NCBI GenBank assembly: GCA_963701295.1
Contig: OY969585.1
Coordinates: forward strand, 1,312,001-1,376,000
Source of the DNA: Ignavibacteriota bacterium
Lineage (GTDB): Bacteria; Bacteroidota; Ignavibacteria; UBA10030
Direction of reading: 5' to 3'
Length of the DNA stretch: 64,000 nt
Shown: one piece after another, positions 8,853 to 55,924 of the stretch
Layout of the letters: the number at the start of each line of letters is the position of its first letter
Numbering within the stretch: position 1 is the first letter of the stretch
Program-made: the position numbers and the translations under genes
Notes under the pieces: model-generated
Databases searched by the model: none
Seen by the model: the letters and a program-made list of their open reading frames with translations, nothing else
What the model was told of the DNA's origin: nothing

Positions 8853-8855
8853 ACT

Positions 8856-16178: not shown

Positions 16179-16200
16179 ACGAATAAAAGAGAAAAATACA

Positions 16201-21339: not shown

Positions 21340-21381
21340 TCGTTATCTTTGTATTTGTGGCCACGTAACGACAAATTTAAT

Positions 21382-31721: not shown

Positions 31722-33932
31722 ATGCAGAAACCTAAGCATTTAAGAATAAATCATTTCATAATCATCATATTAGCAAGTGTGTTACTTCCTTGTCTCGTTT
31801 CTGGGCAGACCGTGGATGATTGTCTTGCATGTCATTCAGACAATACGTTGACGATAGAGAAGAAGGGAAAAACAATTTCCCTGTTTGCGGATCAATCGAT
31901 ATTAAAAAAATCATCCCATGCAAAACTTATCTGCATTGCCTGCCATGTTAGTTTCGATGCCGGCAATGTTCCCCACAAAGAGAAGATCGATCCGGTCAAT
32001 TGTTTAAACTGTCACAAAGATGCGATCACCAAACATCTTATTCACAGCCCGATATTGGAATCAAAAACAAGCGATTCAGAACTTATCGTTTCATGCAAAC
32101 AATGTCATGGCACGCATAACGTTCAACGCACAAAAATAAGGACTACCGGAATGATATCGGCAGAATCGGTTGATATCTGTGCGACCTGCCATGAACAACA
32201 AGCGCGGCATTATCGCCTTTCGGCACATGGCAAAGCGTCGAACTCTGGAGTTATAGGTGCACCTGTTTGTATGTCGTGCCATCGAAGTCAGATCACAAGA
32301 TTAAAAGATAGTTCCGATTCTGCGAAAGTGAAACTTATGCAGGAAAAGCTTTGTCTCTCATGTCATCTGGATGATCCCAATGTACGTAGGCAGGTTTCGC
32401 CGACGGCAGGTTTTATTGCTGCCTATGAAAAAAGTGTCCATGGCTCTGAGCTATTGAAAGGAAATGCTTCCGCCGCGAATTGTATCAATTGTCATAGCAG
32501 CCATGAAATTGAGAAGGGAAAAGAGTCAACGTCACTTGTAAATCGCAATCACATTCCGGAGACATGCGGTACTTGTCATGCTTCCATAGGGCACGAGTAT
32601 CGGGAAAGTATTCATGGAACCGCATCGATCAAGGGCAATAAAGAAGCACCTGTGTGTACGGATTGCCATGGTGAACATAATATTCTTTCGCCATCAAATC
32701 CGAATTCTCCTGTTTCAGCACGCAATGTTTCTGCTCAGGTCTGTGCGCCATGTCACAGTTCAGTCACATTAATGGAAAAATTTGGACTTGCCGGGGATCG
32801 ATTTAAAACATTTTCATCCAGTTTCCATGGTCTAGCAACGAGTTCTGGGAGTACAGAAGTTGCAAATTGTGCAAGTTGTCACGGAGTGCATAACATCAAA
32901 CCATCCAGCGATTCCACTTCTTTGGTTCATAAATCCAAGCTTGCAACAACCTGTGGTAAATGTCACCCTGGAGCGAATGAACGATTTACTGTAGGTTCCA
33001 TTCATTCCTCAAATACAGACAAAAATGAAGAACCTGTACTCTATTGGGTGTCATTGCTCTATGTTCTTCTTATTGCATCGATCATCGGCGTGATGACATT
33101 GCACAACCTTCTCGACTTCTATCGAAAATCAAAACGAAGGTTGATGATCAGGCGTGGATTAGTAGCCGAGGAACACTATGGACACACATTATATGTACGT
33201 ATGACTTTGAATGAACGCATTCAGCATATTTTACTCATGCTCAGTTTCTTTACGCTTGTTTTTACGGGTTTTATGCTCCGGTATCCAGAGGCATTTTGGG
33301 TTGTCGCAATCAGAAATCTGAACACAAACGTTTTCGATATGCGCGGCATCATACATCGGATTTCTGCAGCAGTGATGGTAACGGCAAGCTTGTATCATCT
33401 TTATTATATTATTTTTGTGCCGCGCGGGAAACAATTGATTCGTGACTTGTTGCCGGTTAGGAATGATATTATTGATGCGATTTCTGTACTGAAGTACAAT
33501 CTTGGCTTTTCACCGATCAAACCAAAATTTGACAGGTTCAATTACATCGAGAAGAGTGAATATTGGGCGCTGGTATGGGGAACCGTTGTGATGAGTGTAA
33601 CTGGTGTCATTCTATGGTTCGATAACACATTTATGGGATTATTTACAAAGCTTGGTTGGGATGTCGCTCGTGCGGTACATTTCTATGAAGCATGGTTAGC
33701 CTTCCTTGCTATCATTATCTGGCATATATATTTTGTCATTTTTAATCCGGATATTTATCCAATGAATCTTGCTTGGCTCAAAGGTTCGTTAACAGAATCG
33801 GAAATGGCAGAAGAACACGCGAAGGAGCTTGCTACATTAAAGCGCGCAGCGCTGGAAGAGGAGAGGAAAATGATATCCGTAATTGTTGATGAAGAAGATG
33901 CAGCGAACACATCAGAGGAGAAGTCCATATAA
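31722..33932 (+). CDS. CbcL-like fusion: 13-heme c domain plus membrane di-heme b (FdnI/HydC-type) domain
   Basis: Signal peptide, 13 CxxCH motifs counted, then TM region with ERIQH, IIHR, YHLYY, FNYIEKSEYWA, VHFYEA, WHIY. Confidence 0.88.
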   Translation: MQKPKHLRINHFIIIILASVLLPCLVSGQTVDDCLACHSDNTLTIEKKGKTISLFADQSILKKSSHAKLICIACHVSFDAGNVPHKEKIDPVNCLNCHKDAITKHLIHSPILESKTSDSELIVSCKQCHGTHNVQRTKIRTTGMISAESVDICATCHEQQARHYRLSAHGKASNSGVIGAPVCMSCHRSQITRLKDSSDSAKVKLMQEKLCLSCHLDDPNVRRQVSPTAGFIAAYEKSVHGSELLKGNASAANCINCHSSHEIEKGKESTSLVNRNHIPETCGTCHASIGHEYRESIHGTASIKGNKEAPVCTDCHGEHNILSPSNPNSPVSARNVSAQVCAPCHSSVTLMEKFGLAGDRFKTFSSSFHGLATSSGSTEVANCASCHGVHNIKPSSDSTSLVHKSKLATTCGKCHPGANERFTVGSIHSSNTDKNEEPVLYWVSLLYVLLIASIIGVMTLHNLLDFYRKSKRRLMIRRGLVAEEHYGHTLYVRMTLNERIQHILLMLSFFTLVFTGFMLRYPEAFWVVAIRNLNTNVFDMRGIIHRISAAVMVTASLYHLYYIIFVPRGKQLIRDLLPVRNDIIDAISVLKYNLGFSPIKPKFDRFNYIEKSEYWALVWGTVVMSVTGVILWFDNTFMGLFTKLGWDVARAVHFYEAWLAFLAIIIWHIYFVIFNPDIYPMNLAWLKGSLTESEMAEEHAKELATLKRAALEEERKMISVIVDEEDAANTSEEKSI

Positions 33933-33970
33933 CACAGGTATGATTACGATTAAGGCCGAAGAAATCTTGC

Positions 33971-35464
33971 ATGAAAAAAATATTTCCTGATTCATTTTAC
34001 AATCCCATTACACTCCTTGGGGGCGCTATTGCTTCTATCAGTTTCGGCTTGATTGTGTTTCTTGCTGTACTTGATGCATTGGCTAAGGAACAAAAGCCGT
34101 ATATGGGCATTATTACTTTTATTGTCTTGCCTATATTTCTTATCGGGGCACTTATACTGATTGTATTCGGCGTGATGAGAGAACATCGGCGAAAAAAACA
34201 CGGACTTGTCACCGAACATCGCCTGCCGCGCATCGACTTAAATGATTCCAAACAACGAACAGCTTTCGTAACGGTTTCTCTCGTGAGTCTTCTTCTTTTG
34301 GGATTCAGCGCTTTTGGGAGTTTCAAAGCCTATGAGTACACCGATTCTGATCAATTCTGTGGAACTATGTGTCACAAGGTTATGCATCCGGAATATACGG
34401 CATATCAATATTCACCTCATGCGAGAGTCGGTTGTGTACAATGTCATATTGGTCCCGGGGCAGGATGGTATGTGCGCTCAAAATTCTCTGGTGCCTATCA
34501 AGTGTATTCTGTTCTCTTCAACAAATATTCACGACCTATTCCTACACCGATAGAGAATTTACGTCCAGCCCAGCAAACCTGCGAGCAGTGCCATTGGCCC
34601 CAGCACTTCTTTAGCGAGAAATTTCTACACAACACATACTATCTTTCAGATGATAAGAATAGCAAATGGACACTAGATCTCCTTGTCCGTATTGGCGGAG
34701 GAAATATCGAGGCGGGCCCCACATCGGGAATCCATTGGCACATGAACATTGGCAATGAAGTCATGTATGTCCCGACCGATTCCCAACGACAAGTGATTCC
34801 CTGGGTTCGCGCGAAGGACCTCAACGGTAAAGTTACCGTTTATCGATCGATTGATCAACCGATGAGTGATTCAGCGGCAGCGCAAAAAGAAATGCGGCGG
34901 ATGGATTGCATCGATTGTCACAATCGCCCAACGCATATTTATCATCCTCCAGCACGATCTGTGAATCATGTTATATCTCTTGGCTGGATCGACCCCGAAC
35001 TTCCGAGTATTAAAAGTCTTGCCGTCAAAGTTCTTGAACAATCCTACACATCAGAGGCGCAGGCTGGCGAAGGCATTAAACAAAAGATCAAAGAATTTTA
35101 TTCGCTCAACCATCCGGATATTGCACGGGATAAGCAAAAAAATATTGACCGTGCCATTGAGGAGGTCCAAAAGATATATTCGCGGAATTATTTTCCAGAA
35201 ATGAATGTATCGTGGAAGCGATTTAATGATAACGTTGGGCACATGTATTATCCAGGTTGTTTCCGATGTCATGATGGAAAGCATGTTTCTGACAATGGAA
35301 AAGTGTTGTCACGGGAATGCAATGTCTGTCATACAATTCTCTCGCAGCAATTCGAGAAAAAAGGCTTGCGAATGTCATTAAGCGGAGTTGAGTATCAACA
35401 TCCAGTTGATATTGGAAATGCATGGAAAGAAATGAACTGTAGCGATTGTCATAATGCCCAATAG
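33971..35464 (+). CDS. ImcH-like NapC/NirT-family quinol dehydrogenase (7 hemes)
   Basis: Three N-terminal TM helices, FCGTMCH (CX3CH) plus 6 CxxCH, MHPEY..Y..SPHARV.CVQCHIG, LRPAQQTCEQCHWP. Confidence 0.88.
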   Translation: MKKIFPDSFYNPITLLGGAIASISFGLIVFLAVLDALAKEQKPYMGIITFIVLPIFLIGALILIVFGVMREHRRKKHGLVTEHRLPRIDLNDSKQRTAFVTVSLVSLLLLGFSAFGSFKAYEYTDSDQFCGTMCHKVMHPEYTAYQYSPHARVGCVQCHIGPGAGWYVRSKFSGAYQVYSVLFNKYSRPIPTPIENLRPAQQTCEQCHWPQHFFSEKFLHNTYYLSDDKNSKWTLDLLVRIGGGNIEAGPTSGIHWHMNIGNEVMYVPTDSQRQVIPWVRAKDLNGKVTVYRSIDQPMSDSAAAQKEMRRMDCIDCHNRPTHIYHPPARSVNHVISLGWIDPELPSIKSLAVKVLEQSYTSEAQAGEGIKQKIKEFYSLNHPDIARDKQKNIDRAIEEVQKIYSRNYFPEMNVSWKRFNDNVGHMYYPGCFRCHDGKHVSDNGKVLSRECNVCHTILSQQFEKKGLRMSLSGVEYQHPVDIGNAWKEMNCSDCHNAQ

Positions 35465-35478
35465 AAAGTAATTCTTCT

Positions 35479-35934
35479 ATGAATCAAATACCTGAGATTC
35501 CAGAGAACCAAAGTAAAAGAGATTTCCTTCAATGGATTCTGGCTGGTGGTGTCACAGCTTTTTTAGCAGCTGTATTGTACCCAATTTTTGCGTACCTCAA
35601 TCCACCGAAACAACCAGAGGTTGAAGTCTCGAGCGTTAAAGCGGGAAAGCTCAGTGAAATGGAAAAGGAGAGCGGAAAAATTATCAAGTTCGGCACAAAA
35701 CCAGTGATTATAATCAGGACTGCAAACGGTGAAGTACGTGCATTTTCCGCAACCTGTACGCATCTCGATTGCACCATTCAATTCCGGAAAGATTTTGGTA
35801 CAATTTGGTGCGCCTGTCATAATGGAAAGTATGATCTTAACGGAAGAAATATCTCTGGCCCGCCGCCGCGACCTCTTGATGAGTTCAGAGTCGTGGTTCA
35901 AGGTGATGAAATCCTTATTTCGAAAAAAACATGA
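35479..35934 (+). CDS. Rieske [2Fe-2S] subunit of a Rieske/cytochrome b complex
   Basis: KRDFL Tat-like anchor, CTHLDC and CACHNGKY boxes, GPPPRPL. Confidence 0.93.
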
Positions 35935-37004
35935 AAACATTCCTACAACGAATTTACTCATGGATTGACGAGCGAGTTGAGATTCAGGGACTCGTGGAAT
36001 ATATGGGAAAAAAATATGTTCCTGTACATCGCCATTCAATTTGGTACTATTTTGGAGGAGTATCACTCTTCCTCTTTATTATACAGGTTGTCACAGGCAT
36101 CCTTTTGCTTCTCTATTACAAAAGCGGAGAAGAACTTGCATTCGAAAGCATTAACTTTATCATGTCAAAGGTGCAATTCGGCTGGCTCATTCGGTCGATC
36201 CATAGCTGGACTGCAAACTTATTTATTCTCTCGGCGATGATTCATATGTTCAGTGTGTTTTTTGAAAAAGCCTACCGAAAGCCACGCGAAATTACATGGG
36301 TAACAGGTATGTTTATGTTCTTCCTTGCGCTTGGATTCGGATTCAGCGGGTATCTTCTTCCATGGAATGAACTCGCATTTTTTGCTACAAAGGTCGGAAC
36401 AGACATCGCAGGTGTTGTTCCAATTATTGGCAAGCCGTTGATGATCTTCCTTCGAGGCGGAGAAGAGGTGACCGGGGCAACACTTTCACGGTTCTTTGGT
36501 TTCCACGTCGCTGTGCTTCCGGGACTCTTCACAGTGTTTCTCGGTGTTCATCTTCTTCTGGTTCAACGACAAGGAATGAGTGAACCATTGGATATCAAAA
36601 AAGAAACTGAACAAAAGACGATGCCTTTCTTTCCGAATTTCATTTTACGTGATCTCACTCTCTGGCTCCTTGTTCTCAATCTTCTCGCTATTCTTGCAGT
36701 ATTTTTTCCATGGGAATTGGGCAAGAAAGCTGATGCATTTGCACCTGCACCTGCCGGAATAAAACCAGAATGGTACTTCCTCTATATGTTTCAGACATTG
36801 AAATATATCCCAGGCAAATTATTGTTTTTGGATGGCGAAATCCTGGGTATCCTTCTCTTTGGAATTGCAGGACTTTTGTGGACGGTGGTGCCGTTTTGGG
36901 ATCGCAAGAGTTCGCGGGGAGAACAGAATCGTTTTGTGAATTATATTGGACTCTTCGCTATCGTATACATTATCATTTTCACGATCATTGGATGGCTCGC
37001 ATGA
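35931..37004 (+). CDS. Cytochrome b of a Rieske/cytochrome b complex (b6 plus subunit IV-type fusion)
   Basis: [31 protein letters not shown]; ATGA overlap with the Rieske gene. Confidence 0.93.
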
Positions 37005-38476
37005 AACAGAGAATTATTCTTTTTGCCACAACTCTAATAGCTGTCCTTGTTTCAAGAGAATGTGTTCTTGCAAACGACAAGTGTCTTGAGTGCCATCGAA
37101 ATACAGAGGACAAACCTTCAGCATTATTTTTAAATGATATTCATTATACCAAGGGAATTACATGTGCCGGGTGCCATGGAGGCAATCCCAACACTGAAGA
37201 GATGGAACGAGCAATGGACAAAAAGGTCGGTTTCATCGGAGCGCCGAAAGGAGACGATATCTCCAAGATATGTGCTGCATGCCATTCTTCTCCTGAAAAG
37301 ATGAAATCGGTTGGTTCGTCTCTTCCAACAAATCAGTGGGAGATATTGCAGACGAGTGTCCACGCAAAGCTTTCACTAAAAGGAAAAGAACACATTACGC
37401 AGTGTGTTACTTGCCACAATTCACATGGAATTGTCTCCGTCAAAGATCCATCTTCGCCTGTGTATCCTCTGAATGTTGTCAAAACGTGTGTGAAGTGCCA
37501 TGCAAATATAACAATGATAAAATCCTATAATACATCTCTTCCAGTTGATCAATTGGAAAAATATCGAACGAGTGTTCATGGTATACTCAATGCAAAGGGG
37601 GATCCTAAGACTGCTGAATGTGCAAGTTGCCATGGAAGTCATGACATCCGATCTGCAAAGGATGTGAAATCAAAAGTATATGCTTCAAACCTTCCGGGAA
37701 CATGTGCAACCTGTCATAGCAACGCTGAATATATGAAGGCGTATAAAATTCCTACAAATCAATACGAAAAATATGCAAGGAGCATTCATGGTGTTGCATT
37801 ACTTCAAAAGCATGACGCAGGAGCTCCAGCATGCAACAATTGTCATGGAAATCATGGTGCAGTACCTCCGGGTGTAGAATCGGTCTCAAAAGTGTGCGGC
37901 ACATGTCATGCACTCAATGCTGATCTTTTTTCATCAAGTCCTCATAAGAAAGCGTTTGATCAGCGCAAGCTCCCTGAGTGCGAAACATGCCACAGCAATC
38001 ATGAAATTATAGCTGCGACCGATAAATTATTAGGTGTTACACCAGAGGCTATTTGCAGCAAGTGTCACAATGAAACTCAAAACGTCAAAGGGTATCAAGT
38101 GGCAAAAAAAATGCGTGGATTGATAGATAGTTTAGAAGCAGCTGAGAGAAGGGATCAAGAATTGGTCTATGAAGCTGAACAGAAAGGAATGGAAATCAGC
38201 GAGGCGAAGTTCAGGCTCCGGGATGTTCGACAAGCTCGGCTTCAATCTCGAACAGCGGTTCATGCTTTTAGCGAAGAGAAATTCGCCGAAGTTATTAGTA
38301 ATGGCTTAAAAACAGCTGCTTCAATTGTAGTGGAATCCGAAAGTGCAATCCGTGAATATTATTTTCGAAGAATTGGATTGGCTGTCTTGACAAGTATTAT
38401 CACAATCCTGGCAATATCATTATTCTTATATATCAAGCAGCTTGAGAATAAACAAGGTAAAAATAAGAAAAATTGA
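37001..38476 (+). CDS. 11-heme cytochrome c with C-terminal membrane anchor
   Basis: Signal peptide from ATG 37001 (overlaps the cytb stop), 11 CxxCH counted, coiled region, C-terminal [25 protein letters not shown]. Confidence 0.9.
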
Positions 38477-38709
38477 GGAATATTTAGCAACTTCTGGACT
38501 CTTCTTACATTCCTTTTACTCCAATACCCTATTTGTTTTTTCTCCATTTAGAAGCAAAAAAGAACATAATTGTGGAACTCTAAAGTTTAAAGATTTGTTC
38601 CAATCACTTGCTTTTATATTATTACTCTATTACCTTAATATTGTATAATTAATATACAATTTTATTTAATTATAGTTGATAATTAAAACATTTTTGAAAG
38701 GAAAACTCT

Positions 38710-39225
38710 ATGCGAACAATAATACTTCTTTTTGCCATCCTCCTTATTGTTCCTTTCATATTAAACGCTCAAAACAAGTATGTTGGTGTCAAGATGTGCA
38801 AAATTTGTCATCAATCAGAGAAGCAAGGAAAACAATTTGATGTCTGGCAAAAGAGCAAGCATGCGGAAGCATTTAAAACCTTGTCTTCAGATACAGCGAA
38901 TGCAATTGCAAAAGCGAAAGGATTGAAGAAGACTGCTGCGGAATCTCCGGAGTGTCTTGAATGTCATGCAATTACAGCTGATCCAAAATTGATGGCTGAT
39001 GGTGTTCAATGCGAAATGTGCCACGGTGCAGGTTCTTCTTATAAGAACATGGCGATTATGAAAGATTCAGTGAAGGCTGTAGCAGCTGGTTTGGTCATCT
39101 ACAAAGATAAAGCGGCAATCGAAAAGAAGTGCAAGGCATGTCATAATGAAAAGAGTCCGTTCTATAAGACATTCAAATTTGAAGAAATGTGGGCGAAAAT
39201 TAAACATCCAATTCCAAAAGGATGA
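38710..39225 (+). CDS. Periplasmic tetraheme cytochrome (c554-like)
   Basis: Signal peptide, YVGVKMCKICH, W..SKHA.AF, CLECH, GVQCEMCHG.GS.Y, CKACH. Confidence 0.88.
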   Translation: MRTIILLFAILLIVPFILNAQNKYVGVKMCKICHQSEKQGKQFDVWQKSKHAEAFKTLSSDTANAIAKAKGLKKTAAESPECLECHAITADPKLMADGVQCEMCHGAGSSYKNMAIMKDSVKAVAAGLVIYKDKAAIEKKCKACHNEKSPFYKTFKFEEMWAKIKHPIPKG

Positions 39226-39348
39226 CATTTTATCTCGATTGAAAACTTTGATTTTACTGTAAAGTGGGACACAAAAGGTGTTTAGTCTTTAAAATTAATT
39301 GAATTATCATTTAATCGCTTTAACTAAACCATTCATGGGCGATGAACA

Positions 39349-40662
39349 ATGAAACGTCTGATATCGCAATGCACTTTTACGTTTACAATTGTGCTTGGAG
39401 TGCTTTTCTGTATTATAAGCTCTGAAGCGTCAGGTCAATTTTTTCAATTGCGTCTTGTATCATCAGCCTATGCATGGCAGCGGCAGGATACTGTGGGGCA
39501 ATCCTCAAACCATCTTTTCGGATATCAGACAGCTCAACTTTCGTTCGCCGGTGAACATCTTTCATTCCATACGTACATGCAGGGGTTCAATGATTTTACC
39601 GGTCCGTTGAAAAACGAAGGTACTGTCCGGTTTTATGATTTTTATTTAAAATACTCCGACTTACTCGATAAGATTGATCTCAGTCTTGGACGTCAAACAA
39701 TCTTTGCTGGTGTTGGCAATGGCACCATCGATGGCGGTGTTGCTTCAATCAGATTACTTGATTCTAGATTAAAGGTGCTTGGATATTACGGTTCACTTCC
39801 CAGTCCAGAGCAAAAGTTGGAAATGATCGGAGATCAAAAGAATAATAGCATGCTTGGTGCTCAAGTTATTGGTACGCCGACCGAATATGCGCGTGTGTCA
39901 CTGAGTTATATGCATGAGAATTTGAAACCGGAAACATATTGGGCAAAACGTGCATACGATTCCACATATAATGTGCACGATGTCGAGATTACTCCACTCG
40001 CAACTGCAGAAGAATATGTAAGCGGAGATGTCAATATAGAATACAACATCGTCTCTGCGTATGCACGCAGCGATTATGATATGATTTTGGATAGGCTCTC
40101 AAGAATCCAGCTTTTTACTCGTGTCAAAGTTACGGAACCACTTTCATTAACCGGCGAATATATTCACCGTGAGCCTCGCTTATCTTATAATTCCATCTTC
40201 TGGGTGTTTGCATATAACACGATCAGCGAATATGAACTCGGTGCTGAATATGCAATCTGCAAAGACTGCCAAGTCTTTGGGAAATTCGGATCTGTTTCAT
40301 ATGGCGACGACAATTCCAACCGCATTACTTTGGGTGGCAGCACGAAATACACCTCTGTAAGTTTTAGCTGGAATACAGGTTATGGCGGAGAATTAGCAGC
40401 ATTTTCTGTAAATGCCGGTTATCCATTGATGAACAATAAACTAACCCCAACCGTGATGGTGGGATATGCGCATTATAAATTAAGCAGCGATGCCCCGACA
40501 TTAGATGCGTTGAGCGGCGCGCTAGGAGTTGTATATCGGCCTGTTCCAGTGTTTTCGCTGGATACACAAGCACAGTGGATTAAAAATAAAATTTATAGCA
40601 ACGATGTACGCCTCTTTGTTCGAGGCAGCTATTATTTCGGCGAACGATTGAACATTTTCTGA
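39349..40662 (+). CDS. Putative outer-membrane beta-barrel porin of a porin-cytochrome complex
   Basis: Signal peptide, alternating amphipathic Tyr/Phe/Gly-rich strands, no heme motif, C-terminal Phe; 7 nt before a multiheme gene. Confidence 0.75.
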   Translation: MKRLISQCTFTFTIVLGVLFCIISSEASGQFFQLRLVSSAYAWQRQDTVGQSSNHLFGYQTAQLSFAGEHLSFHTYMQGFNDFTGPLKNEGTVRFYDFYLKYSDLLDKIDLSLGRQTIFAGVGNGTIDGGVASIRLLDSRLKVLGYYGSLPSPEQKLEMIGDQKNNSMLGAQVIGTPTEYARVSLSYMHENLKPETYWAKRAYDSTYNVHDVEITPLATAEEYVSGDVNIEYNIVSAYARSDYDMILDRLSRIQLFTRVKVTEPLSLTGEYIHREPRLSYNSIFWVFAYNTISEYELGAEYAICKDCQVFGKFGSVSYGDDNSNRITLGGSTKYTSVSFSWNTGYGGELAAFSVNAGYPLMNNKLTPTVMVGYAHYKLSSDAPTLDALSGALGVVYRPVPVFSLDTQAQWIKNKIYSNDVRLFVRGSYYFGERLNIF

Positions 40663-40669
40663 GATCAAC

Positions 40670-41908
40670 ATGCCAACAACTCGAACGAACACTTTGTTTA
40701 TTATAAAGAATGGATACCTGTGTTTCGGTCTGGTACTCATCCTATTGCTTAGTTTCACTGCTGTATTGAAATCCCGAGAAACAACCGGTGATAACAAACA
40801 ACGGAAGTGCGTAAAATTCTCGCACCAATTCCATGTAAAAGAATCCGGTATTGCGTGTATAGATTGTCATGCAAACGCATCGAAAAGCGTGAATGCATCG
40901 GACAATCTTCTCGCGAAAATGGAATCATGCAAAAGCTGCCATGAAGATCAGGTTAAAAGCAATTGTACTTACTGCCACACTAGCGCCGATTCCGCAACAT
41001 ATACAGCTTCTCAAAACCCGGTGCGCGAATTTCGTTTTTCACATCAACAGCATGTAGAAGATCAAAAAATCGATTGTGAGAGTTGTCATACAATGCTTGA
41101 TAAAGCTGGAGCTGCAATTGGAGAGCTTGTACCTGCAATGACGATCTGTGTAACTTGCCATAATGATGTGAAAGCAACCGGTGCATGCGAGAAATGTCAT
41201 ACGAATTTGGCTGCACTGAGGCCCGCGGAACATAACCGATCAGATTTTTTACATGAGCACAAGCAATTGGCGCGTATGGGCGATGCCAAGTGTGGTACGT
41301 GCCATACACAAGAAAGTTGTCTTGATTGCCATAATGGTTCGGCATTAGTGAAGGTTGACGTTCCGGGCCGTGATTTGATGTCACAATATTCGCCGCGACT
41401 TACTTCAATAGACCGCGGTCAAGGAATGGTGTTAACAAAAGTGCATGATCTGAATTTCCGATTCACGCATGGCATTGCCGCAAAGGGCAAAACGATGGAA
41501 TGCCAGACCTGTCATAGTCAGGAACAATTTTGCTCCACATGCCATCAAGCAGGGGGCAATGTCAATCAAGGTGCATTTAAACCATCATCACATATGGCTG
41601 CTGGATTTACAACGCTGGGCGTTGGAAGCGGTGGCGGTGAACATGCACGTCTGGCAAAACGAGATATTGAATCGTGCGCAGCCTGCCATAGTGCAGAGGG
41701 TGCCGATCCAGTGTGTATCACCTGCCATGTCGATCCTGACGGAATAAAGGGTAATGATCCGAAAACGCATGACCCTGGCTTCATGTCCAATACACATGGG
41801 CCCTGGCATAGTGATCCCGGCGCCAATTGTTACATGTGCCATACAGATGTCAACGCACATCCGGGCGGAGTGAAAGGACAGAAATTCTGCGGTTATTGCC
41901 ACCGATAA
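40670..41908 (+). CDS. 14-heme cytochrome c (c7/c3-like repeats), periplasmic or porin-embedded
   Basis: 14 CxxCH counted; two FSHxxH...CxxCH c7-like units, then paired hemes. Confidence 0.9.
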   Translation: MPTTRTNTLFIIKNGYLCFGLVLILLLSFTAVLKSRETTGDNKQRKCVKFSHQFHVKESGIACIDCHANASKSVNASDNLLAKMESCKSCHEDQVKSNCTYCHTSADSATYTASQNPVREFRFSHQQHVEDQKIDCESCHTMLDKAGAAIGELVPAMTICVTCHNDVKATGACEKCHTNLAALRPAEHNRSDFLHEHKQLARMGDAKCGTCHTQESCLDCHNGSALVKVDVPGRDLMSQYSPRLTSIDRGQGMVLTKVHDLNFRFTHGIAAKGKTMECQTCHSQEQFCSTCHQAGGNVNQGAFKPSSHMAAGFTTLGVGSGGGEHARLAKRDIESCAACHSAEGADPVCITCHVDPDGIKGNDPKTHDPGFMSNTHGPWHSDPGANCYMCHTDVNAHPGGVKGQKFCGYCHR

Positions 41909-41923
41909 TGGGATGGATTGACT

Positions 41924-42793
41924 ATGAAGAAACTCTATATCATTCTCATTTTGATGTTATTGATAATATCAGCACTTCTCACTTCATGCAGTGATTTAAA
42001 GAAAGATCTACCGACAGCAACAAGTGCTGAAGTACAGATTCATGGACAAGGATGGATCGATACCGGCTCTGTAAATTTCCATGGCAAGTATATTCAAAAC
42101 ATTAATTACAATCTTGCAATTTGCAAGCAGTGTCATGGAAGTAATTATGAAGGCGGTACATCAAACAGTTCATGCTGGCAATGTCACTCAGGACCCGGCG
42201 GGCCGGAAAATTGTGCTACATGTCATGGCATGCCTCCTGCGCCGGATCGTTATGGAAATACTTCCTCTACCGCCCCTGGAGTTGGGGCGCATTATATACA
42301 TTATACAGGAACAGGAACAATTTCCTCCACAGCGATGCATTGCGAAGATTGCCATCATTTGCCCAACGGAGTTTCTGACTCAACACATATCACCGCAACG
42401 AGAATTGCGCAAGTACAGATAAGTAATTTAGGCGCTCTGCAAACGAATGGTGTTGTTCCATCAGCTTCGTTTAGCCAGTCGACTTTAAAATGCACAAATA
42501 CATTTTGTCATGGTAGTTGGATGTTACCGAAATCCGGATTGGCAACCGATTCTGTGTTTTCCGGTACTGTAATGAGTGGAGCAAATTATTCGCCGATATG
42601 GAATGGCGGATCTTCCCAAGACAGTTGCGGCTCTTGTCATGGAATTCCTCCATCCGGCCATAATTCTTACGGCCCATCTAATTCTCAAGGTTGTTCACTC
42701 TGTCATGAAGATGTTACAACCGCTTCCGGAAAACTCATGCATATGAACGGAAAGATTAATCTTGCAGGCGGAGTGGTAAGAAACTTCCGATAA
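41924..42793 (+). CDS. Lipoprotein multiheme cytochrome (6 CxxCH plus 1 CX4CH)
   Basis: LLTSC lipobox; CTNTFCHG...P.W...CGSCHG.PP matches the CxxxxCH...CxxCH repeat seen in Geobacter-type surface cytochromes. Confidence 0.87.
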   Translation: MKKLYIILILMLLIISALLTSCSDLKKDLPTATSAEVQIHGQGWIDTGSVNFHGKYIQNINYNLAICKQCHGSNYEGGTSNSSCWQCHSGPGGPENCATCHGMPPAPDRYGNTSSTAPGVGAHYIHYTGTGTISSTAMHCEDCHHLPNGVSDSTHITATRIAQVQISNLGALQTNGVVPSASFSQSTLKCTNTFCHGSWMLPKSGLATDSVFSGTVMSGANYSPIWNGGSSQDSCGSCHGIPPSGHNSYGPSNSQGCSLCHEDVTTASGKLMHMNGKINLAGGVVRNFR

Positions 42794-42901
42794 TAAAATT
42801 AAATAATTCTTTATAGGTACGCATATTCTAAAGAATATGCTCATTTATAGGATGATAAAGATAAATAATTAAATTTTAACCTTTAACGAAAAAGGTGTTA
42901 T

Positions 42902-44176
42902 ATGATGAACAAAATATTCGGGAGTTTCGCTACCTGTTTGGTTAGCCTCTTTGTGATTGTGGTCATGTCAGGTTGTAAAGAAGGTCCCACAGGTCCTGCA
43001 GGTAAAGATGCTTTTGTCGGCGCTCTCGAAGGCTATGCCCCTGGCATTCAATGCGCTACATGTCATAGTGCAGATTCTGATACAACATATCGAGTTGTTG
43101 CAAGGGATGTTCAATATGCTACATCAGAGCATGCTGTGGGTGGTGATTTTGCACGCAATACGTATGATTGCGCTGGTTGCCATACGAATGAAGGTTTCTA
43201 CGACCGTTATAATAGGGGTTTTACAAATGAAACATTTAACATCAATGCTCCTTCAGTAGAAATTTGTACCCAGGGTTATCCTAATGCAACACCTCCCGGC
43301 TGCTTTACCTGCCATGCACCTCATCAACGTGCCAATTTCACAGTACGTGATTCCGGTGCAGTAAATATCTTTACGCTTGTTGCTGGACAGACAACACAGA
43401 TATGGAACAGCAGTGCAGCATCCAATTTGTGCGTAAAGTGCCATCAACCGCGAATGACTTCGACATTTATGTGGGCAACTACCTCTTCCAGTGGCATAAC
43501 ACCAGCGTCTTGGCAGCCGGATCCATCAAAAATAAATATAACAGATACGGCAAAAATCTACACATCGCGTTGGAATAACCACGTCTCAGGTGAGCCGGCG
43601 CAAACTTTACTTGGTACCGGTGGATTTGAATTCACGGATTATTCGAATTATCAAAGCTCATATCATACTACTTTAATAAACAACAAAGCGCTGGGTTGCG
43701 AAGATTGTCACATGGCAACTGTGAATGGCGGTAATCAAAACGGCGGGCATACATTCTGGGTGCGTTATCTTGCATCAGGCTCGACAAGCCCATCCTATAA
43801 TGTAAATGGCTGTAATGTATCCGGGTGTCATACAGGCCTTACAGCTTCAGCGTCCGATGCACACTGGGGAGAGCGTGCAACAATTATTGGAGAGACTGCA
43901 CAACTTGCTAAAATGTTGATGGATACATCAATTACAAATAAGTGGTCACAGAAAAGTAAAATTCCTTGGGTGACAGTAACTGCTGGCACGATTGCAGGTG
44001 ATTCCACTTATGGAGTCAATGCAACGGGGAGTAAGCCGCTGATTATTGCTCCAGCTTATAAAGCCGGTGCGATTTGGAATTTGCAACAGGTTCAATATGA
44101 AAAGAGCCATGGTATTCACAATTATAAATATGTTAAGGCTCTGTTGGATAATTCGATTGCAGAGCTTAATAAGTAA
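42902..44176 (+). CDS. Lipoprotein multiheme cytochrome (5 CxxCH plus 1 CX4CH), putative cell-surface reductase
   Basis: VMSGC lipobox, short GPTGPAG linker, CATCH/CAGCH/CFTCH/CVKCH/CEDCH/CNVSGCH, C-terminal EKSHGIHNYKY. Confidence 0.87.
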   Translation: MMNKIFGSFATCLVSLFVIVVMSGCKEGPTGPAGKDAFVGALEGYAPGIQCATCHSADSDTTYRVVARDVQYATSEHAVGGDFARNTYDCAGCHTNEGFYDRYNRGFTNETFNINAPSVEICTQGYPNATPPGCFTCHAPHQRANFTVRDSGAVNIFTLVAGQTTQIWNSSAASNLCVKCHQPRMTSTFMWATTSSSGITPASWQPDPSKINITDTAKIYTSRWNNHVSGEPAQTLLGTGGFEFTDYSNYQSSYHTTLINNKALGCEDCHMATVNGGNQNGGHTFWVRYLASGSTSPSYNVNGCNVSGCHTGLTASASDAHWGERATIIGETAQLAKMLMDTSITNKWSQKSKIPWVTVTAGTIAGDSTYGVNATGSKPLIIAPAYKAGAIWNLQQVQYEKSHGIHNYKYVKALLDNSIAELNK

Positions 44177-44222
44177 GACCAGGTGCTGCAATACCTAAGC
44201 ATTATCATGTATTGTTTCAACA

Positions 44223-44255
44223 TGTGCGGGAGTAAATCTCCCGCACACTTGTTTT
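44223..44255 (+). terminator. Intrinsic terminator or stabilising hairpin after the last cytochrome
   Basis: TGTGCGGGAG-TAAAT-CTCCCGCACA then CTTGTTTT. Confidence 0.65.
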
Positions 44256-44356
44256 CAATTAAATCCCTTCTAAGTGAAACCTTCATATTCAGTTCTGTGT
44301 TGTATTTCGCAGAGTGATTGTTTATTATCTTAATCATCGAATAAAAGGAATATGCC

Positions 44357-46604
44357 ATGATCGGTACTGTTGTCATCTGGATTGCTTGTCTTGCTGGTTT
44401 TACTTCGGCTGTGCTGTATGCATCGTCTATAAAAAAACCAAAAAATCTTCTCAAAGCCCGCAGCGGTTTTATCCTGACGGTTATCAGTGTCATTTTAGGT
44501 TCTGCGCTTCTTATGATTTATATACTCCAGCACCGGTTTGAATATAGCTATGTCACAAATTATAGTTCTCGCGATTTACCAACTGCGTTGCTGATCACAA
44601 CCTTCTGGGCAGGGCAGGAAGGGAGTTTTTTATTGTGGGCATTATTTGCTGTAATCATCGGTATTATTCTTCAGCGATACAGCCGACACAAAGGAATGGA
44701 AGCGGAAGTGATGTCCGCATACTCTCTGGTGATTGCTTTCCTTATTCTGTTGATCTCTATAAAATCTCCATTTCAATATCTTTGGGAAGATCATCCGAGC
44801 GAAGTTCAACCAGGGTTCATTCCTCAAGATGGACGTGGTCTCAATCCGCTTTTACAGAATTTTTGGATGATAATTCATCCGCCGGTACTCTTCATTGGAT
44901 TTGCATCATTGGCAGTTCCGTTTGTCCTCGCTATGGCAGCTCTTTGGCAGAAAAAGTACAATGAATGGATTCGTTCAGCACTTCCGTGGGTGCTTTTTAG
45001 CGGATTGTCACTTGGTTCTGGACTTATATTTGGAGGCTATTGGGCATATGGTGTGCTTGGCTGGGGCGGATGGTGGGGCTGGGATCCGGTAGAAAACTCA
45101 TCGCTCATTCCATGGATCGTTGCCGTTATCCTTGTTCATACGATGCTTATTCAGATGTTAACCGGCAAACTTGTACGAACAAATTTTATTCTTACAGTGT
45201 TAGCGTATCTGTTGATTATCTACAGCACGTTTCTGACACGCAGTGGAGTTCTCGCGAATGCTTCTGTGCATTCGTTTGTAGACCCTGGTTCGCTTGTTTA
45301 TACATTCCTGGTTGTATGGCTGGCGCTCATTGCCATTGGTGGCTTTGGAATGATTATTCTGCGGCGAAAGGATCTGATGAGTAAAAAACCAGCCAGCGCT
45401 TTGATGACACGTGAGTCCCTCCTGTCCATTGCCACGATTGTGCTGGGTGTTTGCGCGGCGATTATTCTGTTTGGAACAAGCAAACCTTTGTTTTCCGATT
45501 CGGTCGTTGAACCTGCTTTCTATGACCGCACGACTCTTCCTCTTGCGACGTTGATGACATTGTTACTGGGATTCAGCCTGCGGGTTAAATGGAATCAGGA
45601 GGATCGACAACTACTTTTCAAGCGCCTTATAATTCCAGGTACTTTCTCTGTTCTTGTTCTTGCTGTTCTTGTCTTTTTAGGCCTGCATGATGTGTTTGCA
45701 GTACCTGCTTGTTTTGACATCACTCTTCGCTTTTTTTGTTAGTGTCGATCAAGGATTTCGTTTGGCAAAGGAACGACTGCTTTTTATCGGCGGGGCGCTT
45801 GCTCATACAGGATTAGCCGTATTGTTCATTGGCATTATAGCTTCTGGGCGTTATGGACAGAAACAATCCGTTGCGCTTCCACTCAATCAGTCTCAATGGG
45901 TTTTCGGGTACAAGTTGACCTATAACGGCACTCAACCGACAGAAGATGGTAAAACAAAATTTATTGTCCATGTGGATCAAGAGGGAAAGCGTAAAACGTT
46001 TGAACCGGTTATGTTTGAGAGTATTTACAATAATAGCCTCATGCGTAATCCAGACTATAGCAGTTACTGGACAAAGGATTTTTACATCGAACCGGTTTCT
46101 CTTGAACAGAATAACACAGAACAACAAAACATTATCGATTTACTAAAAGGAGAAACTATTCCTTACGGTCCCATGACGATCACATTCCATAAATTTGATC
46201 TTTCATCACATGACAAAGGCAAAATGTCGGGAGGCAGCGATGGTGCTATGACTATCGGTGTTGTGCTTGAAGTGAAAACAGAAAAAGACATTCAGACCGT
46301 TGTACCAGTAACAACGTATACTTCGAAAGGCGCAATGGAAATGAAAACTGCCTATTTACAGAATAGTCATATTGGATTCCAACTAGTATCGATGAATATA
46401 GGGACAGGCAAAGGAGAAAGATCCCATGTGCGCATCAATGTCGTGGGAGCGGGGGAAAATCATGGAATGAATCAGAAGCCTGAAACACTCATCGCTGAAG
46501 TGAGTGTGAAACCGTTTATGAATTTTGTATGGATTGCTGCTGTGTTGATTATAAGCGGTTTGACAGTAGCGATGGTGAGACGATTGAAGCCGAATAACAT
46601 CTGA
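44357..46604 (+). pseudogene. ccmF: CcmF/NrfE-family cytochrome c heme lyase, split by a +1 frameshift near 45704 (likely a sequencing error)
   Basis: WAGQEGSFLLW, GLNPLLQN, IHPP, WGGWWGWDPVEN, TRSG, SVHSF; removing one C joins ...LHDVFAV-LLVLTSLF... to the C-terminal ORF (AHTG, VSVKPFMNFVW). Confidence 0.88.
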
Positions 46605-46737: not shown

Positions 46738-47454
46738 TTATTCTTCTGATTGAAGAATATTCTCTTTGAGATAGATGAATTTATTTGCTTGGTTCATCAC
46801 GAGCATATCTTTCGGAACAATTTTTAGCAGTCCACGATTCTGAAAATTATCTAACATCAAATTCAAAATAAAGTGTACTTTAAAGTACAAACCTGATTCA
46901 GTACTCTTTGCCTTCATTGCCTCGTTTCGAACGACAGTCCATTTGAAATCGGGATCGAATTTCAAATAAATACGAGATTGTCGATAACCACCCTGAATAC
47001 TATCCGATAGACCAACATAAGGATTTTTCGGAATGACGCAACCAGTTGTTGGAATTTCGTATGGCGCTTCAACTCGTGTTGGGGATTTCACAGAATACAC
47101 TCCTGCATCAGCATCGTACTGGATGAGTGTTGCCTTGAACCACACACCAAATACTCTTCGTTCCAGCTTGGCATCCTTGATATGTCCGTTCAGTTTATCC
47201 ATAAATGTCTGCCGTGCTTTCGCCGCGCGCGTATGGAATTCCGCTGTTGTCTCGAACTCATCACGAGTTCCAGTCTCCTTGATAAGCTGGTCAGTTGTCT
47301 CTCTTAAATAAGTCCACTCATCTTTCAGAATCAGAGAAAACAACTCAGGTGTAAGATCATCGTCTTGAAATGCCGGTTGTTGTGCTTCTGCCAGCTGCAC
47401 AGTGGCTGTGAGTAAAACCAAAAGAGAAAATATGACGGTGATATTCTTCTTCAT
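46738..47454 (-). CDS. Hypothetical exported protein
   Basis: AAGGA RBS; MKKNITVIFSLLVLLTATVQLAEA signal; DEFETTAEF..R and YDAD motifs. Confidence 0.75.
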   Translation of the reverse strand: MKKNITVIFSLLVLLTATVQLAEAQQPAFQDDDLTPELFSLILKDEWTYLRETTDQLIKETGTRDEFETTAEFHTRAAKARQTFMDKLNGHIKDAKLERRVFGVWFKATLIQYDADAGVYSVKSPTRVEAPYEIPTTGCVIPKNPYVGLSDSIQGGYRQSRIYLKFDPDFKWTVVRNEAMKAKSTESGLYFKVHFILNLMLDNFQNRGLLKIVPKDMLVMNQANKFIYLKENILQSEE

Positions 47455-47488
47455 ACTACATCCTTTCAAAAAGTACATTGAACATGAT

Positions 47489-48910
47489 CTATCGTATCGA
47501 TATAATATTCGCAGAGAGTGTTTTTGCAATCCCATGCGCATTTTGTACACAGTCCCCTACCGATATGCCACCGCGATAATTTCCGGCAAGCACAATGCCC
47601 GGATGGGATTCTTCAAATTGTGTTAGTGCATCTATTTTGTGCTGGTAACCGATTTCATACTGTGGAATCGATTTCTGCCAGCGTGTCAAATGTAAATATA
47701 CAGGATTTCCGGAAAGTTGCATGATAGATTTAAGTTCATCCAGCGTTATTTGAATGATGCGTTCATCGTTCAGGGTTGTCAATTCAGGCTGCCGTGCGCC
47801 GCCGATAAAGGCATTCAACGCAGCCATTCCTGCCGGTGCACGATGAGCAAAAAGGCAGGAATTCCATAAACAGCCGAGAATCTTCCTTTTCTCCTTCGAT
47901 GGAATCAGGAATCCAAAACCATCTAACCGATGTTCTATCTGTTCGCGCTTCACCCCTAAAAAAATAGAAACGATGGGTGAATAGTAAATGGAAGATAACA
48001 CGTGTGCTGTATTCACAGACAGCGATTTAATGAGTGGGGAAGCGTCGTATGCGGGGATGGCGAACACGACACTATCCGCTTCCATTTCTGTTTCTTGATC
48101 ATTATGAAGATATTCAACAAGATAGCGGCGTGCATCGGGTTCGTTCGATGGCTCGTTGCGCGCGGTGGTTAAATTTCTGATGTTGGTGACTTTTGCATTA
48201 AGAATAACCGAATTGCCAAGTGAAGTGGCAATGGCACACGGAAGCATTTGCATTCCGCTAACAAATGAAAAGGTCTCTGCGCGGTCTTTTGCTTTCTCGG
48301 CTCTCTGTTTTCTTTCCCGTGCACCTTTAATCATTCCTTTGACAAGTCCGCCGTACTTTTCTTCCAAGGCGTAGAGTTTGGGAAAAGCGGAACGCACACT
48401 GAGTTGTTCCGGCTTTCCAGCAAAAACTCCGGCAACAAATGGATCGATAGCATAGTCAAGGAAATCCCTGCCCAATCGTCGCTCCACGAATTCAGCAATG
48501 CTTTCTTCTTTTGTTGCTTTTCCGATGAACGGGTCTTTCATCACTCGGAATTTTGCAGCGGGAGAAAAGAGTTTTGTCGAAAGGAACGAACTAGGTCCAA
48601 GTGGCATGGAATGTAAAATACTATCCCGGAGAATGTACCGATTCTTGCCTTCAGGGTTTGCATATACAAATTCCGATTCTAATTTCAAGTCGGAGACAAG
48701 TTCCTTAATGAACGGAGTCGTTTCCAAACCGGTGTTTGCGCCTGTCTCGTACAAGAAGCCATGATCCTGTACGGATTTCATCGTTCCACCGACTTCGCGT
48801 TCTTTCGCCAGGACGGTTACCTTGATGCCGCGTTTTTTCAACCAATACGCAACGCAAAGTCCCGTGATACCTTCGCCGATAACGATGACATCTGTTTTCG
48901 TTGGTCCCAT
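47489..48910 (-). CDS. hemG: Protoporphyrinogen oxidase, HemY-type flavoprotein
   Basis: VIGEGITGL dinucleotide fold, GVFAG.PEQLS, GFGFLIP, IPQY, GNYRGGISVGDC; in the hem operon. Confidence 0.92.
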   Translation of the reverse strand: MGPTKTDVIVIGEGITGLCVAYWLKKRGIKVTVLAKEREVGGTMKSVQDHGFLYETGANTGLETTPFIKELVSDLKLESEFVYANPEGKNRYILRDSILHSMPLGPSSFLSTKLFSPAAKFRVMKDPFIGKATKEESIAEFVERRLGRDFLDYAIDPFVAGVFAGKPEQLSVRSAFPKLYALEEKYGGLVKGMIKGARERKQRAEKAKDRAETFSFVSGMQMLPCAIATSLGNSVILNAKVTNIRNLTTARNEPSNEPDARRYLVEYLHNDQETEMEADSVVFAIPAYDASPLIKSLSVNTAHVLSSIYYSPIVSIFLGVKREQIEHRLDGFGFLIPSKEKRKILGCLWNSCLFAHRAPAGMAALNAFIGGARQPELTTLNDERIIQITLDELKSIMQLSGNPVYLHLTRWQKSIPQYEIGYQHKIDALTQFEESHPGIVLAGNYRGGISVGDCVQNAHGIAKTLSANIISIR

Positions 48911-48986
48911 AGGTGTCTAAGTATAGAGTAAAAGGTGATAAGTAAAAAGTATAACAAACATGTATTTGAGATTTTGTTCTTAGAAT

Positions 48987-50093
48987 TTAAGATTTATTCT
49001 TTGCGATTTGAAATTTGCTCCAAGGACAGAGAACAGGCATTGATCGATCTGTACAATTCTTCCAGAGTACCTCGCACGTTCTGGGCTGTACGTCTGATGC
49101 AAGTTGTGCTTGAACGAGTTCAGCTAGACATTGGATATATTTTAGATGATCATTCAATGCAGGCATCACTTCGAATTGTTCAATGCCATATGCCATCGCG
49201 TGCCCGCGCACGTCGATATTGATTTCGTGCAGCGTCTCAATATGATCGGTGACGAATGAAACCGGGATAACCAATAGATGTTTACGGTCTTTACTGGCAA
49301 TGTGTTCGATTGTTTCAATGAGTGATGGTTTCAGCCATTTCATTGATCCGACCTTACTTTGATAACAAAGTGAATGTGGAGAGTTCCACTTTCCACGCTC
49401 TACGATACATCGCACTGTCTCTTCCACCTGCATTTGGTACGGATCGCCGCGTTTGATGTAGCTTAGCGGGACACCATGCGCGCTAAAAATAAGATCGATG
49501 TCTGTCGATGCGATGTTATGAAACCGTATGAGTGCTGAGTTTATATTTTCTACTACAGCTTCGACAAACAATGGTTGACTGGGATAACAACAGACAAGTT
49601 TTGTCGGGATGACGCATCCTTGTTTCTTCGTTTGACGTTTCCATTCGTTCATGCTTGAAAGCGTTGTTGATTGCGAGAATTGAGGATAGAGCGGCAATAG
49701 GATTACTTGCTCAAATTCATCTGCTTTAATTTTTTTTACTACTTCATCAATCAGCGGATGCCAATAGCGCATTGCAATGAAGACGCGTGCATTAATATTT
49801 CGAGATCGCAACCTGGACTCTAAAGCAGAAGCTTGACGTTGTGTGAGATCGAGAATTGGAGACTTACCTCCTATTTGCTTGTAATTCTCTACAACCTTCA
49901 CTGATCGACGACTTGAAATAAATTTTGCCAGAGGTCTCCGTGTAAGAAATGCACAGGGGAAATCGATGATGTCAGGATCTATAAAGAGATTGAAGAGAAA
50001 TGGTTCAATCGCTTCAAGTGAATCCGGTCCGCCAAGCTGAAAGAGGACAACAGCCGTTTTTTTTTGAAAAGTAAATTTCAAGTTACCAGTCAT
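48987..50093 (-). CDS. hemH: Ferrochelatase
   Basis: QLGGP, IGGKSP, AMRYWHP, PLYPQFS, FSAHG, GDPY, FVTDHIETLHEI. Confidence 0.95.
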   Translation of the reverse strand: MTGNLKFTFQKKTAVVLFQLGGPDSLEAIEPFLFNLFIDPDIIDFPCAFLTRRPLAKFISSRRSVKVVENYKQIGGKSPILDLTQRQASALESRLRSRNINARVFIAMRYWHPLIDEVVKKIKADEFEQVILLPLYPQFSQSTTLSSMNEWKRQTKKQGCVIPTKLVCCYPSQPLFVEAVVENINSALIRFHNIASTDIDLIFSAHGVPLSYIKRGDPYQMQVEETVRCIVERGKWNSPHSLCYQSKVGSMKWLKPSLIETIEHIASKDRKHLLVIPVSFVTDHIETLHEINIDVRGHAMAYGIEQFEVMPALNDHLKYIQCLAELVQAQLASDVQPRTCEVLWKNCTDRSMPVLCPWSKFQIAKNKS

Positions 50094-50146
50094 GAGTTCT
50101 TCGATTTCGGTTTCAGTCTATCATCTCTGCAATCTCACATCTCCAA

Positions 50147-51190: not shown

Positions 51191-51288
51191 CTTTGTAGAT
51201 CCTCTTTCGGTTTTAAAATTACAAATTGGAGGCTGAAGTAATCTTAATCCTTAATCCTAAATTTTAACTTACCAATTCTATTTTTAAT

Positions 51289-54279: not shown

Positions 54280-54280
54280 G

Positions 54281-55901: not shown

Positions 55902-55924
55902 TGAATATTCCTTAGCGTCCATCT

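Follow-up and report, generated by a model that had tools for sequence, protein, structure and literature searches.

Porin-cytochrome conduits of the Pcc family were founded on OmbB-OmaB-OmcB of Geobacter sulfurreducens, where a porin, a periplasmic cytochrome and a lipoprotein cytochrome are encoded in that order, and a survey published in 2014 gave the barrels of the family 18-22 strands and their periplasmic cytochromes 5-14 hemes (PMC4245776). The largest of these cytochromes, IALB_1838 of Ignavibacterium album (400 amino acids, 14 motifs), was placed together with the porin IALB_1839 outside the five sequence groups of that paper, distant from all of them (PMC4245776). Here we describe a locus of the same kind in a stretch of 64,000 nucleotides from Ignavibacteriota bacterium (GCA_963701295.1, contig OY969585.1, positions 1,312,001 to 1,376,000 of the forward strand), referred to as the window, in which a beta-barrel gene is followed by genes for a 14-heme cytochrome and two lipoprotein cytochromes. 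Sequence comparison and structure prediction make it very probable that this locus represents the Ignavibacteria branch of the Pcc family, and that it would act as a conduit for electrons from the periplasm to an acceptor outside the cell.

Clusters of this type have been reported as OmbB-like in Ignavibacteria genomes, as far as the accessible parts of three other papers go (PMC7399161, PMC6137239, PMC6344600), one of which describes Melioribacter roseus as carrying such a porin and reducing Fe(III) (PMC6137239). In the accessible parts of two further Melioribacter papers the porin cluster is undescribed (PMC5492636, PMC3534657), and in the full-text literature the IALB locus tags came up in PMC4245776 only. 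The conduit genes of the window, and the parts of their products discussed below, are as follows.

39349..40662, + strand: beta-barrel gene, 437 amino acids, zero CxxCH motifs.
40168..40221, + strand: conserved outer loop of the barrel, residues 274-291, motif RxPxxxxNSIF, with near-invariant columns and the best-resolved model contacts.
40195-40197, + strand: codon of barrel Ile283, which covaries with the last heme pair of the cytochrome.
40670..41908, + strand: 14-heme cytochrome c gene, 412 amino acids, 14 CxxCH, 7 nucleotides after the barrel gene.
40808..41203, + strand: pair of c7-type triheme domains that resemble GSU1996, carry hemes 1-6 and are predicted to be periplasmic (PF14522, TIGR04257 below cut-off; profile match to PDB 3ov0).
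41216..41905, + strand: four diheme repeats that carry hemes 7-14 and a conserved pair of distal His each, predicted to thread the barrel.
41756-41902, + strand: last diheme repeat, missing from 14 of 67 homologs.
41924..42793 (from its ATG), + strand: lipoprotein cytochrome 1 gene, 289 amino acids, after a gap of 15 nucleotides, six CxxCH and one CX4CH.
42902..44176, + strand: lipoprotein cytochrome 2 gene, 424 amino acids, after a gap of 108 nucleotides, five CxxCH and one CX4CH.

The open reading frames of the + strand, with intergenic gaps of 7, 15 and 108 nucleotides, bear out the four genes, the two short spacings and the 14 CxxCH motifs that had been noticed in an earlier reading of the letters alone (hereafter the sequence-only reading). 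A chance origin of the 14 motifs is excluded, since 10,000 shuffles of the 412-residue cytochrome gave at most 3. The same-strand locus is wider than the 39349..44176 of that earlier reading, running from 31722 to 46604 with 59 CxxCH in total, and it holds seven of the eight open reading frames of the genome with at least three CxxCH motifs; the sole multiheme frame elsewhere, with 7 CxxCH, lies outside the window at C1:564366-565655 (- strand).

The cluster of I. album JCM 16511 (IALB_1840-1837) is like the window in its order, in which a periplasmic cytochrome, a porin, a 14-heme cytochrome of about 400 amino acids and an outer-membrane cytochrome with an atypical motif follow one another, and its porin is a full-length homolog of the window barrel, with 32% identity both to IALB_1839 (AFH49545.1; 368 columns, E 7e-58) and to the longer RefSeq form WP_041294121.1 (424 columns, E 2e-65). 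The two 14-heme cytochromes were likened by the published description of IALB_1838, that is by length and motif count. Among the homologous loci that we collected (below), the barrel of L071 shares 86% identity with the representative of the cluster containing IALB_1839, and the window cytochrome is 39-43% identical to the 14-heme proteins of 400-401 amino acids in loci L068-L071. The window differs from I. album in adding a second lipoprotein cytochrome, and in that its conduit shares a run with genes of CbcL-like, ImcH-like and Rieske/cytochrome b type and with ccmF. With 22 strands and 14 CxxCH, it falls within the published Pcc ranges. The sequence-only reading had proposed a porin-cytochrome conduit of a distinct type, on the understanding that the partners of Pcc and Ext barrels carry 5-12 hemes. 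By layout the conduit stands; the range was wrong, given the 14 motifs of IALB_1838 (PMC4245776), and the type is not a new one, because a homolog of the window barrel, IALB_1839, was in print with a 14-heme partner in 2014. What survives of the distinctness is the position of IALB_1839/1838 outside the five sequence groups.

In G. sulfurreducens, the OmbB-OmaB-OmcB system shares its gene order with the window, whose barrel lies within the 18-22 strand range of the family, and the eight hemes of OmaB equal the number in the barrel-threading part of the window cytochrome (PMC4245776). The window cytochrome reaches 14 hemes through two added c7 domains, and the window lipoproteins carry 7 and 6 hemes, as opposed to 12 in OmcB. 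Another example is the Geobacter ExtABCD system, which, according to the accessible part of its description (PMC6148476), has two lipoprotein cytochromes and belongs to systems whose outer components are often replaced. Compared by layout, it is like the window in having one barrel, a large periplasmic cytochrome and two lipoprotein cytochromes; ExtB, however, has 18 predicted strands, and ExtA has 12 hemes and a gene placed before that of the barrel, whereas in the window the 14-heme gene lies downstream of the barrel gene and a tetraheme gene lies upstream. Shewanella MtrCAB shares the design of a multiheme cytochrome within a barrel and a lipoprotein cytochrome outside, but MtrB has 26 strands (PMC12133095) as opposed to 22, and the window conduit includes no decaheme MtrC. 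Membership of the MtrCAB/MtoAB/PioAB systems was rejected on the strand number and on the lack of a PF11854 match in the window barrel (in the barrel family this domain is found weakly in 2 of 102 members, best E 0.021), and identity with the decaheme DmsE/MtrA proteins (TIGR03508) was rejected at 19.4 bits against a cut-off of 192.2 and with 14 hemes. Lastly, the dodecaheme c7-type "nanowire" GSU1996 (3ov0) shares tandem c7-type triheme domains with the window cytochrome, which has two of them rather than four, fused to four diheme repeats.

The AlphaFold2 model of the barrel, built on an alignment of 102 sequences, reached a predicted local distance difference test score (pLDDT) of 96.5 and a predicted template modelling score (pTM) of 0.88, and 22 membrane strands were counted on its DSSP string. 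The first strand starts at mature residue 2, so that the model has no plug domain. In TonB-dependent receptors a barrel of 22 strands encloses a plug domain of roughly 150 residues, and the lumen should therefore be wide enough for a narrow heme chain; by a geometric estimate with assumed shear numbers, the backbone radius is about 20 A for 22 strands, compared with 23-24 A for 26. The sequence-only reading had named the strand count as a check and a plugged or too narrow lumen as a danger to its proposal, and the modelled barrel, unplugged and of this radius, shows neither fault. The barrel is present as a single full-length copy in the genome. It matched no Pfam or NCBIfam family at E 0.01, its profile found nothing significant among PDB sequences (best E 0.013), and its 102 homologs gave only weak generic barrel matches in family scans. 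Foldseek returned generic barrels alone (ushers and porins such as FimD and AlgE, with template modelling (TM) scores of at most 0.58 and 7-12% identity), and ESM Atlas gave 30 unnamed clusters, with Ignavibacteriota and Bacteroidota as the commonest taxa.

The cytochrome family was aligned in 67 rows (66 loci and the window, with L003 and L008 left out), which show two c7-type triheme domains followed by four diheme repeats. The best PDB match for the family profile is GSU1996 (3ov0), with E 1.9e-27 over positions 5-141. Across the 67 rows, ten distal His never vary, and two more are present in all 53 rows with the last repeat. In the c7 domains His52/55 and His125/128 are invariant and Met157 is found in 65 of the 67 rows, while position 84 is Met in 20, His in 20 and Lys in 16, the c7 signature being weaker in domain 1; the features expected of a c7-type triheme domain, a pair of distal His on its N-terminal side and a Met ahead of the second CxxCH, are thus present. 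Domains of the GSU1996 kind include a His-Met heme, which the conserved Met fits. Judged from the alignment, each of the 14 hemes would draw one axial ligand from these residues, 12 conserved distal His and two Met. Seven homologs have 12 hemes, the last repeat being gone, and seven have 11, heme 3 being gone as well. Folded alone with the hemes omitted, the cytochrome gave a mean pLDDT of 57.9, with a confident c7 part and values below 50 for residues 203-308; Foldseek with this low-confidence model found zero matches at E 0.001, and neither that search nor the PDB profile search gave a solved relative of the four diheme repeats.

When the barrel and the cytochrome were folded together, in three runs, the pair reached an interface score (ipSAE) of 0.71, against 0.00 for the best of three controls. 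This mark is attained by 116 of 157 solved complexes and by 2 of 215 mismatched pairs, a calibration that is only roughly valid here, as alignments made for this analysis were used. The runs share at least 70% of contacts, with a partner pLDDT of at least 71. Confident contacts with the barrel are made by cytochrome residues 166-397 and by the lone residue 122, so that the c7 domains are almost contact-free before residue 166. The tightest contacts join barrel residues 276-290 to cytochrome residues 329-337 in repeat 3, and further tight contacts join barrel residues 374/376/387/389 to cytochrome residues 262/266 in repeat 2. In outer-membrane barrels the termini and short turns are periplasmic and the long loops lie outside, and by this rule the contacting barrel residues would be at the outer rim. 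For repeats 1 and 4, which were not among the paired contacts listed, the placement is inferred.

A second line of evidence comes from variation in heme number. At barrel residue 283, Ile is found in 52 of the 53 rows with 14 hemes, and in the 14 rows that have lost the last heme pair it is replaced throughout (Tyr in 9, Phe in 4, Met in 1). Of the barrel columns, 42 show at least 90% conservation across the 53 rows with 14 hemes, and among these Ile283 alone is altered in all five short-form groups; Val286, which like Ile283 lies in the outer loop, is altered in four of them. With five divergent 14-heme groups as a control, no column of 41 was altered in more than three. A quick tree needs four changes of heme number, at least three of them forced by well-supported branches. 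The groups were drawn by eye from this tree, so the covariation is a pointer rather than a formal test. The geometry put forward in the sequence-only reading, with the c7 N-terminal domains in the periplasm and the C-terminal paired hemes in the barrel, fits both the covariation and the complex model.

On the outer side, a hydrophobic stretch leads into a lipobox Cys in both lipoprotein cytochromes (Cys22 in lipoprotein 1, Cys25 in lipoprotein 2), a feature kept in homologs, and both proteins are likely to be exposed at the surface. Lipoprotein 1 is of the GSu_C4xC__C2xCH type (TIGR01904, 54.9 bits against a cut-off of 27) and is the constant partner, with a homolog in 67 of 67 loci; lipoprotein 2 is accessory, with a homolog beside the conduit in 14 of 67. 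Neither gave a significant match to PDB sequences. The outer component varies further in single loci: an 871-residue lipoprotein with 18+4 heme motifs is encoded at L010:12486-15101, and in L051, L052 and L100 lipoprotein 1 is followed by a different protein of about 480 amino acids with 10+1 motifs. Split or shortened barrel or lipoprotein genes were seen at G102:C4:1056546-1057768, at L003:10001-11253 and in L049. Single-base breaks at the conduit locus are thus not unique to the window (see ccmF below), since three other assemblies show them.

The barrel profile matches 189 of 301 genomes of the class, two of them marginally (E above 1e-4), and 169 of the 264 near-complete ones, with whole families positive or negative. 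In a phylum-wide sample it matches 50 of 74 genomes of the class and 1 of 227 outside it, the latter weakly. These counts are samples in which kin are not independent. For the study of linkage, 60 of the 150 matches listed were picked for long contigs and spread over families, blind to their neighbors; 10 further loci were added and two duplicates dropped to give 68, of which L008 ends at the barrel, leaving 67 with downstream DNA. In all 67, a cytochrome of 11, 12 or 14 hemes lies directly behind the barrel and lipoprotein 1 lies within 3.2 kb. Within the class, therefore, the barrels without cytochromes that would have embarrassed the sequence-only reading did not appear in any of the 67 loci. 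Among 20 distant homologs that were looked up, the family reaches KSB1 and Calditrichia, with none in Geobacter.

The assignment to the Pcc family is thus drawn from the 32% identity to a published Pcc porin, the 67/67 linkage, the unplugged 22-strand model, the interface score, the covariation at Ile283 and the gathering of seven of eight multiheme frames in one locus. It also draws on the report, in the accessible part of PMC6295460, of ImcH homologs from Fe(III) reducers only, and on the combination of such a porin with Fe(III) reduction in M. roseus. In the proposed system, the CbcL-like, ImcH-like and Rieske/cytochrome b modules encoded upstream would oxidize menaquinol, and a c554-like tetraheme cytochrome would shuttle the electrons to the c7 domains. 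Hemes 1-5, in the two c7-type domains, would hang in the periplasm, with heme 6 at the mouth of the barrel. The C-terminal eight hemes would form an insulated wire inside the predicted 22-strand barrel, repeats 1-2 filling the lumen and repeats 3-4 extending to the outer loops, where electrons would be handed over to one or two probably surface-exposed heme lipoproteins and from there reach Fe(III), humic quinones or an electrode outside the cell. The other genes of the run, and a hairpin within it, are these.

31722..33932, + strand: CbcL-like protein, 13 CxxCH fused to an FdnI-type cytochrome b (PF01292, TIGR01583 below cut-off).
33971..35464, + strand: ImcH-like NapC/NirT cytochrome, six CxxCH and one CX3CH (PF03264).
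35479-35934, + strand: Rieske protein (PF00355), first part of a bc-type module at 35479..38476.
35931-37004, + strand: cytochrome b of the bc-type module (PF00033).
37001-38476, + strand: 11-heme cytochrome of the bc-type module, 11 CxxCH, C-terminal membrane anchor.
38710..39225, + strand: c554-like tetraheme periplasmic cytochrome, 171 amino acids (PF13435 over cut-off), in the position of IALB_1840.
44223..44247, + strand: terminator-like hairpin 3' of lipoprotein 2, 10 pairs, 7 of them G-C (consensus match only).
44357..46604, + strand: ccmF heme lyase, in frames of 461 and 305 amino acids, with an extra base near 45704-45705.

The CbcL-like and ImcH-like proteins were named by architecture, as opposed to alignment, against descriptions in the accessible part of PMC6295460. 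The tetraheme gene is present in 65 of 68 loci, immediately upstream in 57. A terminator scan found 17 sites of this type, compared with 12.6 in shuffles, and a promoter scan gave no excess (39 sites, 39.6 in shuffles).

Several observations weigh against this assignment or the direction of flow. The inner-membrane modules are variable neighbors, found within about 10 kb of the barrel in 49 of 68 loci (CbcL-like), 25 of 68 (bc-type) and 22 of 68 (ImcH-like). The cytochrome folds poorly on its own, as described above, and the complex score, from a model that omits the hemes, may partly reflect likeness to the solved MtrAB. The link to Geobacter Pcc is indirect, by way of IALB_1839, with OmbB and OmaB compared by layout only, and a search of the literature (most subscription journals lying outside its coverage) found no biochemical study of the Ignavibacteria branch. 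The genome's only ccmF is frameshifted in the assembly. Finally, I. album carries the cluster, yet made no use of Fe(III) or Mn(IV) oxides (PMC4245776).

It is possible, though on balance unlikely, that the same conduit delivers electrons mainly to such acceptors as humic quinones, elemental sulfur or partner cells rather than to metal oxides, or runs inward from outside donors. The I. album phenotype speaks for this, and other substrates were proposed for its conduit in 2014 (PMC4245776). CbcL and MtoC homologs occur, according to the accessible part of PMC6295460, in Fe(III) reducers as well as in Fe(II) oxidizers; the presence of the barrel family in 189 of 301 genomes of the class suggests a general use, and the outer lipoproteins are exchanged between lineages. 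Set against this are the ImcH-like gene of the locus, a type so far tied to quinol oxidation only in the accessible part of the same paper (PMC6295460), and the Fe(III) reduction of M. roseus (PMC6137239, accessible part); moreover, this alternative alters the substrate or the direction, not the conduit.

An improbable alternative is an intact cluster that stays silent in this strain, the single ccmF being truly broken and the cytochromes left unmatured. The extra base near 45704-45705 splits ccmF, and tblastn finds no second copy in the genome. On the other hand, the nine upstream and four conduit genes are intact with all 59 CxxCH present. Among 26 distinct loci of relatives with a match, 25 have a single ccmF frame of 741-803 amino acids, and the remaining one is a 170-residue piece at the edge of its stretch. 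Related-strain contigs in three sequencing runs are without the extra base (they are not the window's own reads, the best DNA share being 0.10, and the listing gave no RNA run with the window), and a CcsA-like gene is present at 54399-55097. The extra base is more simply read as a single-base assembly error, which is likely but unproven.

It is slightly less probable still that the hydrophobic N-terminal stretch of the cytochrome, which could be a signal or an anchor, stays uncleaved, so that the wire is tethered to the inner membrane as a fixed periplasmic bridge. A 19-residue window of this stretch reaches a Kyte-Doolittle value of 2.4, and in a single-sequence search the nearest solved relatives are ActA subunits of alternative complex III, which are membrane-anchored. 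In many homologs, however, the stretch ends in small residues typical of signal-peptidase sites, two c7 domains would probably be too short to cross the periplasm, and IALB_1838 was called periplasmic (PMC4245776).

The least probable alternative, which we regard as very unlikely, makes the barrel an ordinary channel, or a scaffold by which the lipoproteins are exported and anchored, and the 14-heme protein a free periplasmic electron store like GSU1996, a described periplasmic carrier and reservoir (PMC13591261); the GSU1996-like N-terminal half and the usher and porin fold matches would suit it, but those matches are generic at 7-12% identity, and the 67/67 linkage, the complex model against its three null controls and the tracking of the last heme pair by Ile283 argue for direct insertion of the wire into the barrel.

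Beyond the conduit, ccmC- and ccmE-type genes are found elsewhere in the genome, and a heme-synthesis run (hemA, C, D, E, H and G/Y-like, named from translations) at 47489-55097 on the - strand converges on the cytochrome locus and includes the CcsA-like gene (PF01578, 54399-55097, - strand); a gene of HemN type is found at 21349-22767. A frame of 270 amino acids at 46738-47550 (- strand), which has no Pfam or NCBIfam match, keeps its place between ccmF and the heme genes in close relatives. Genes for a HypB-like protein and for a NiFe hydrogenase of bidirectional type (NuoE/F/G-like diaphorase subunits, small and large subunits) occupy 5915-12145, and this hydrogenase, some 20 kb upstream of the conduit, is a possible electron source; a pyruvate:ferredoxin oxidoreductase is encoded at 16144-19791. 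Two similar frames of about 146 amino acids without Pfam match (55479-55922 and 57077-57514, - strand) flank a 352-residue 4Fe-4S protein, near a Dam-family methylase gene at 58229-58807 in a lower-GC (guanine plus cytosine) stretch. In another locus (L007:2876-9173), proteins with 4 hemes, with 5 hemes (c7-like), of 816 amino acids with a twin-arginine-like start and of 447 amino acids (membrane) are inserted upstream of the tetraheme gene, in what looks like an alternative-complex-III or Qrc-type module.

As a discovery the cluster is modest, its type, including the 14-heme partner, having been in print since 2014. Within the literature coverage given above, three things were not found in print: a testable orientation of the wire with named contact residues, the scale of the distribution (189 of 301 genomes of the class compared with 1 weak match in 227 genomes of other classes of the phylum), and a natural length series of 11, 12 and 14 hemes that is paralleled by a change in the barrel. 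PDB searches brought up no Pcc-type complex, and the barrel and cytochrome pair, being compact and well modelled, is therefore a reasonable structural target. The cluster also offers a way to recognize Ignavibacteria of anoxic soils and waters that are likely to be electroactive. More tentatively, and with somewhat more doubt than conviction, we suggest that Ignavibacteria may have a structural conduit class of their own, near-core in most families, in which a single polypeptide joins a GSU1996-like periplasmic wire to an eight-heme chain that passes through a 22-strand barrel and ends in a dispensable outer heme pair, an aromatic residue in the outer loop of the barrel repeatedly compensating where the pair has been lost. 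If this is true, the length series would amount to a natural test of the length that a heme wire across the membrane needs, and most of the class would be electroactive, with its respiration wired to humic or mineral acceptors in peat, sediment and groundwater.

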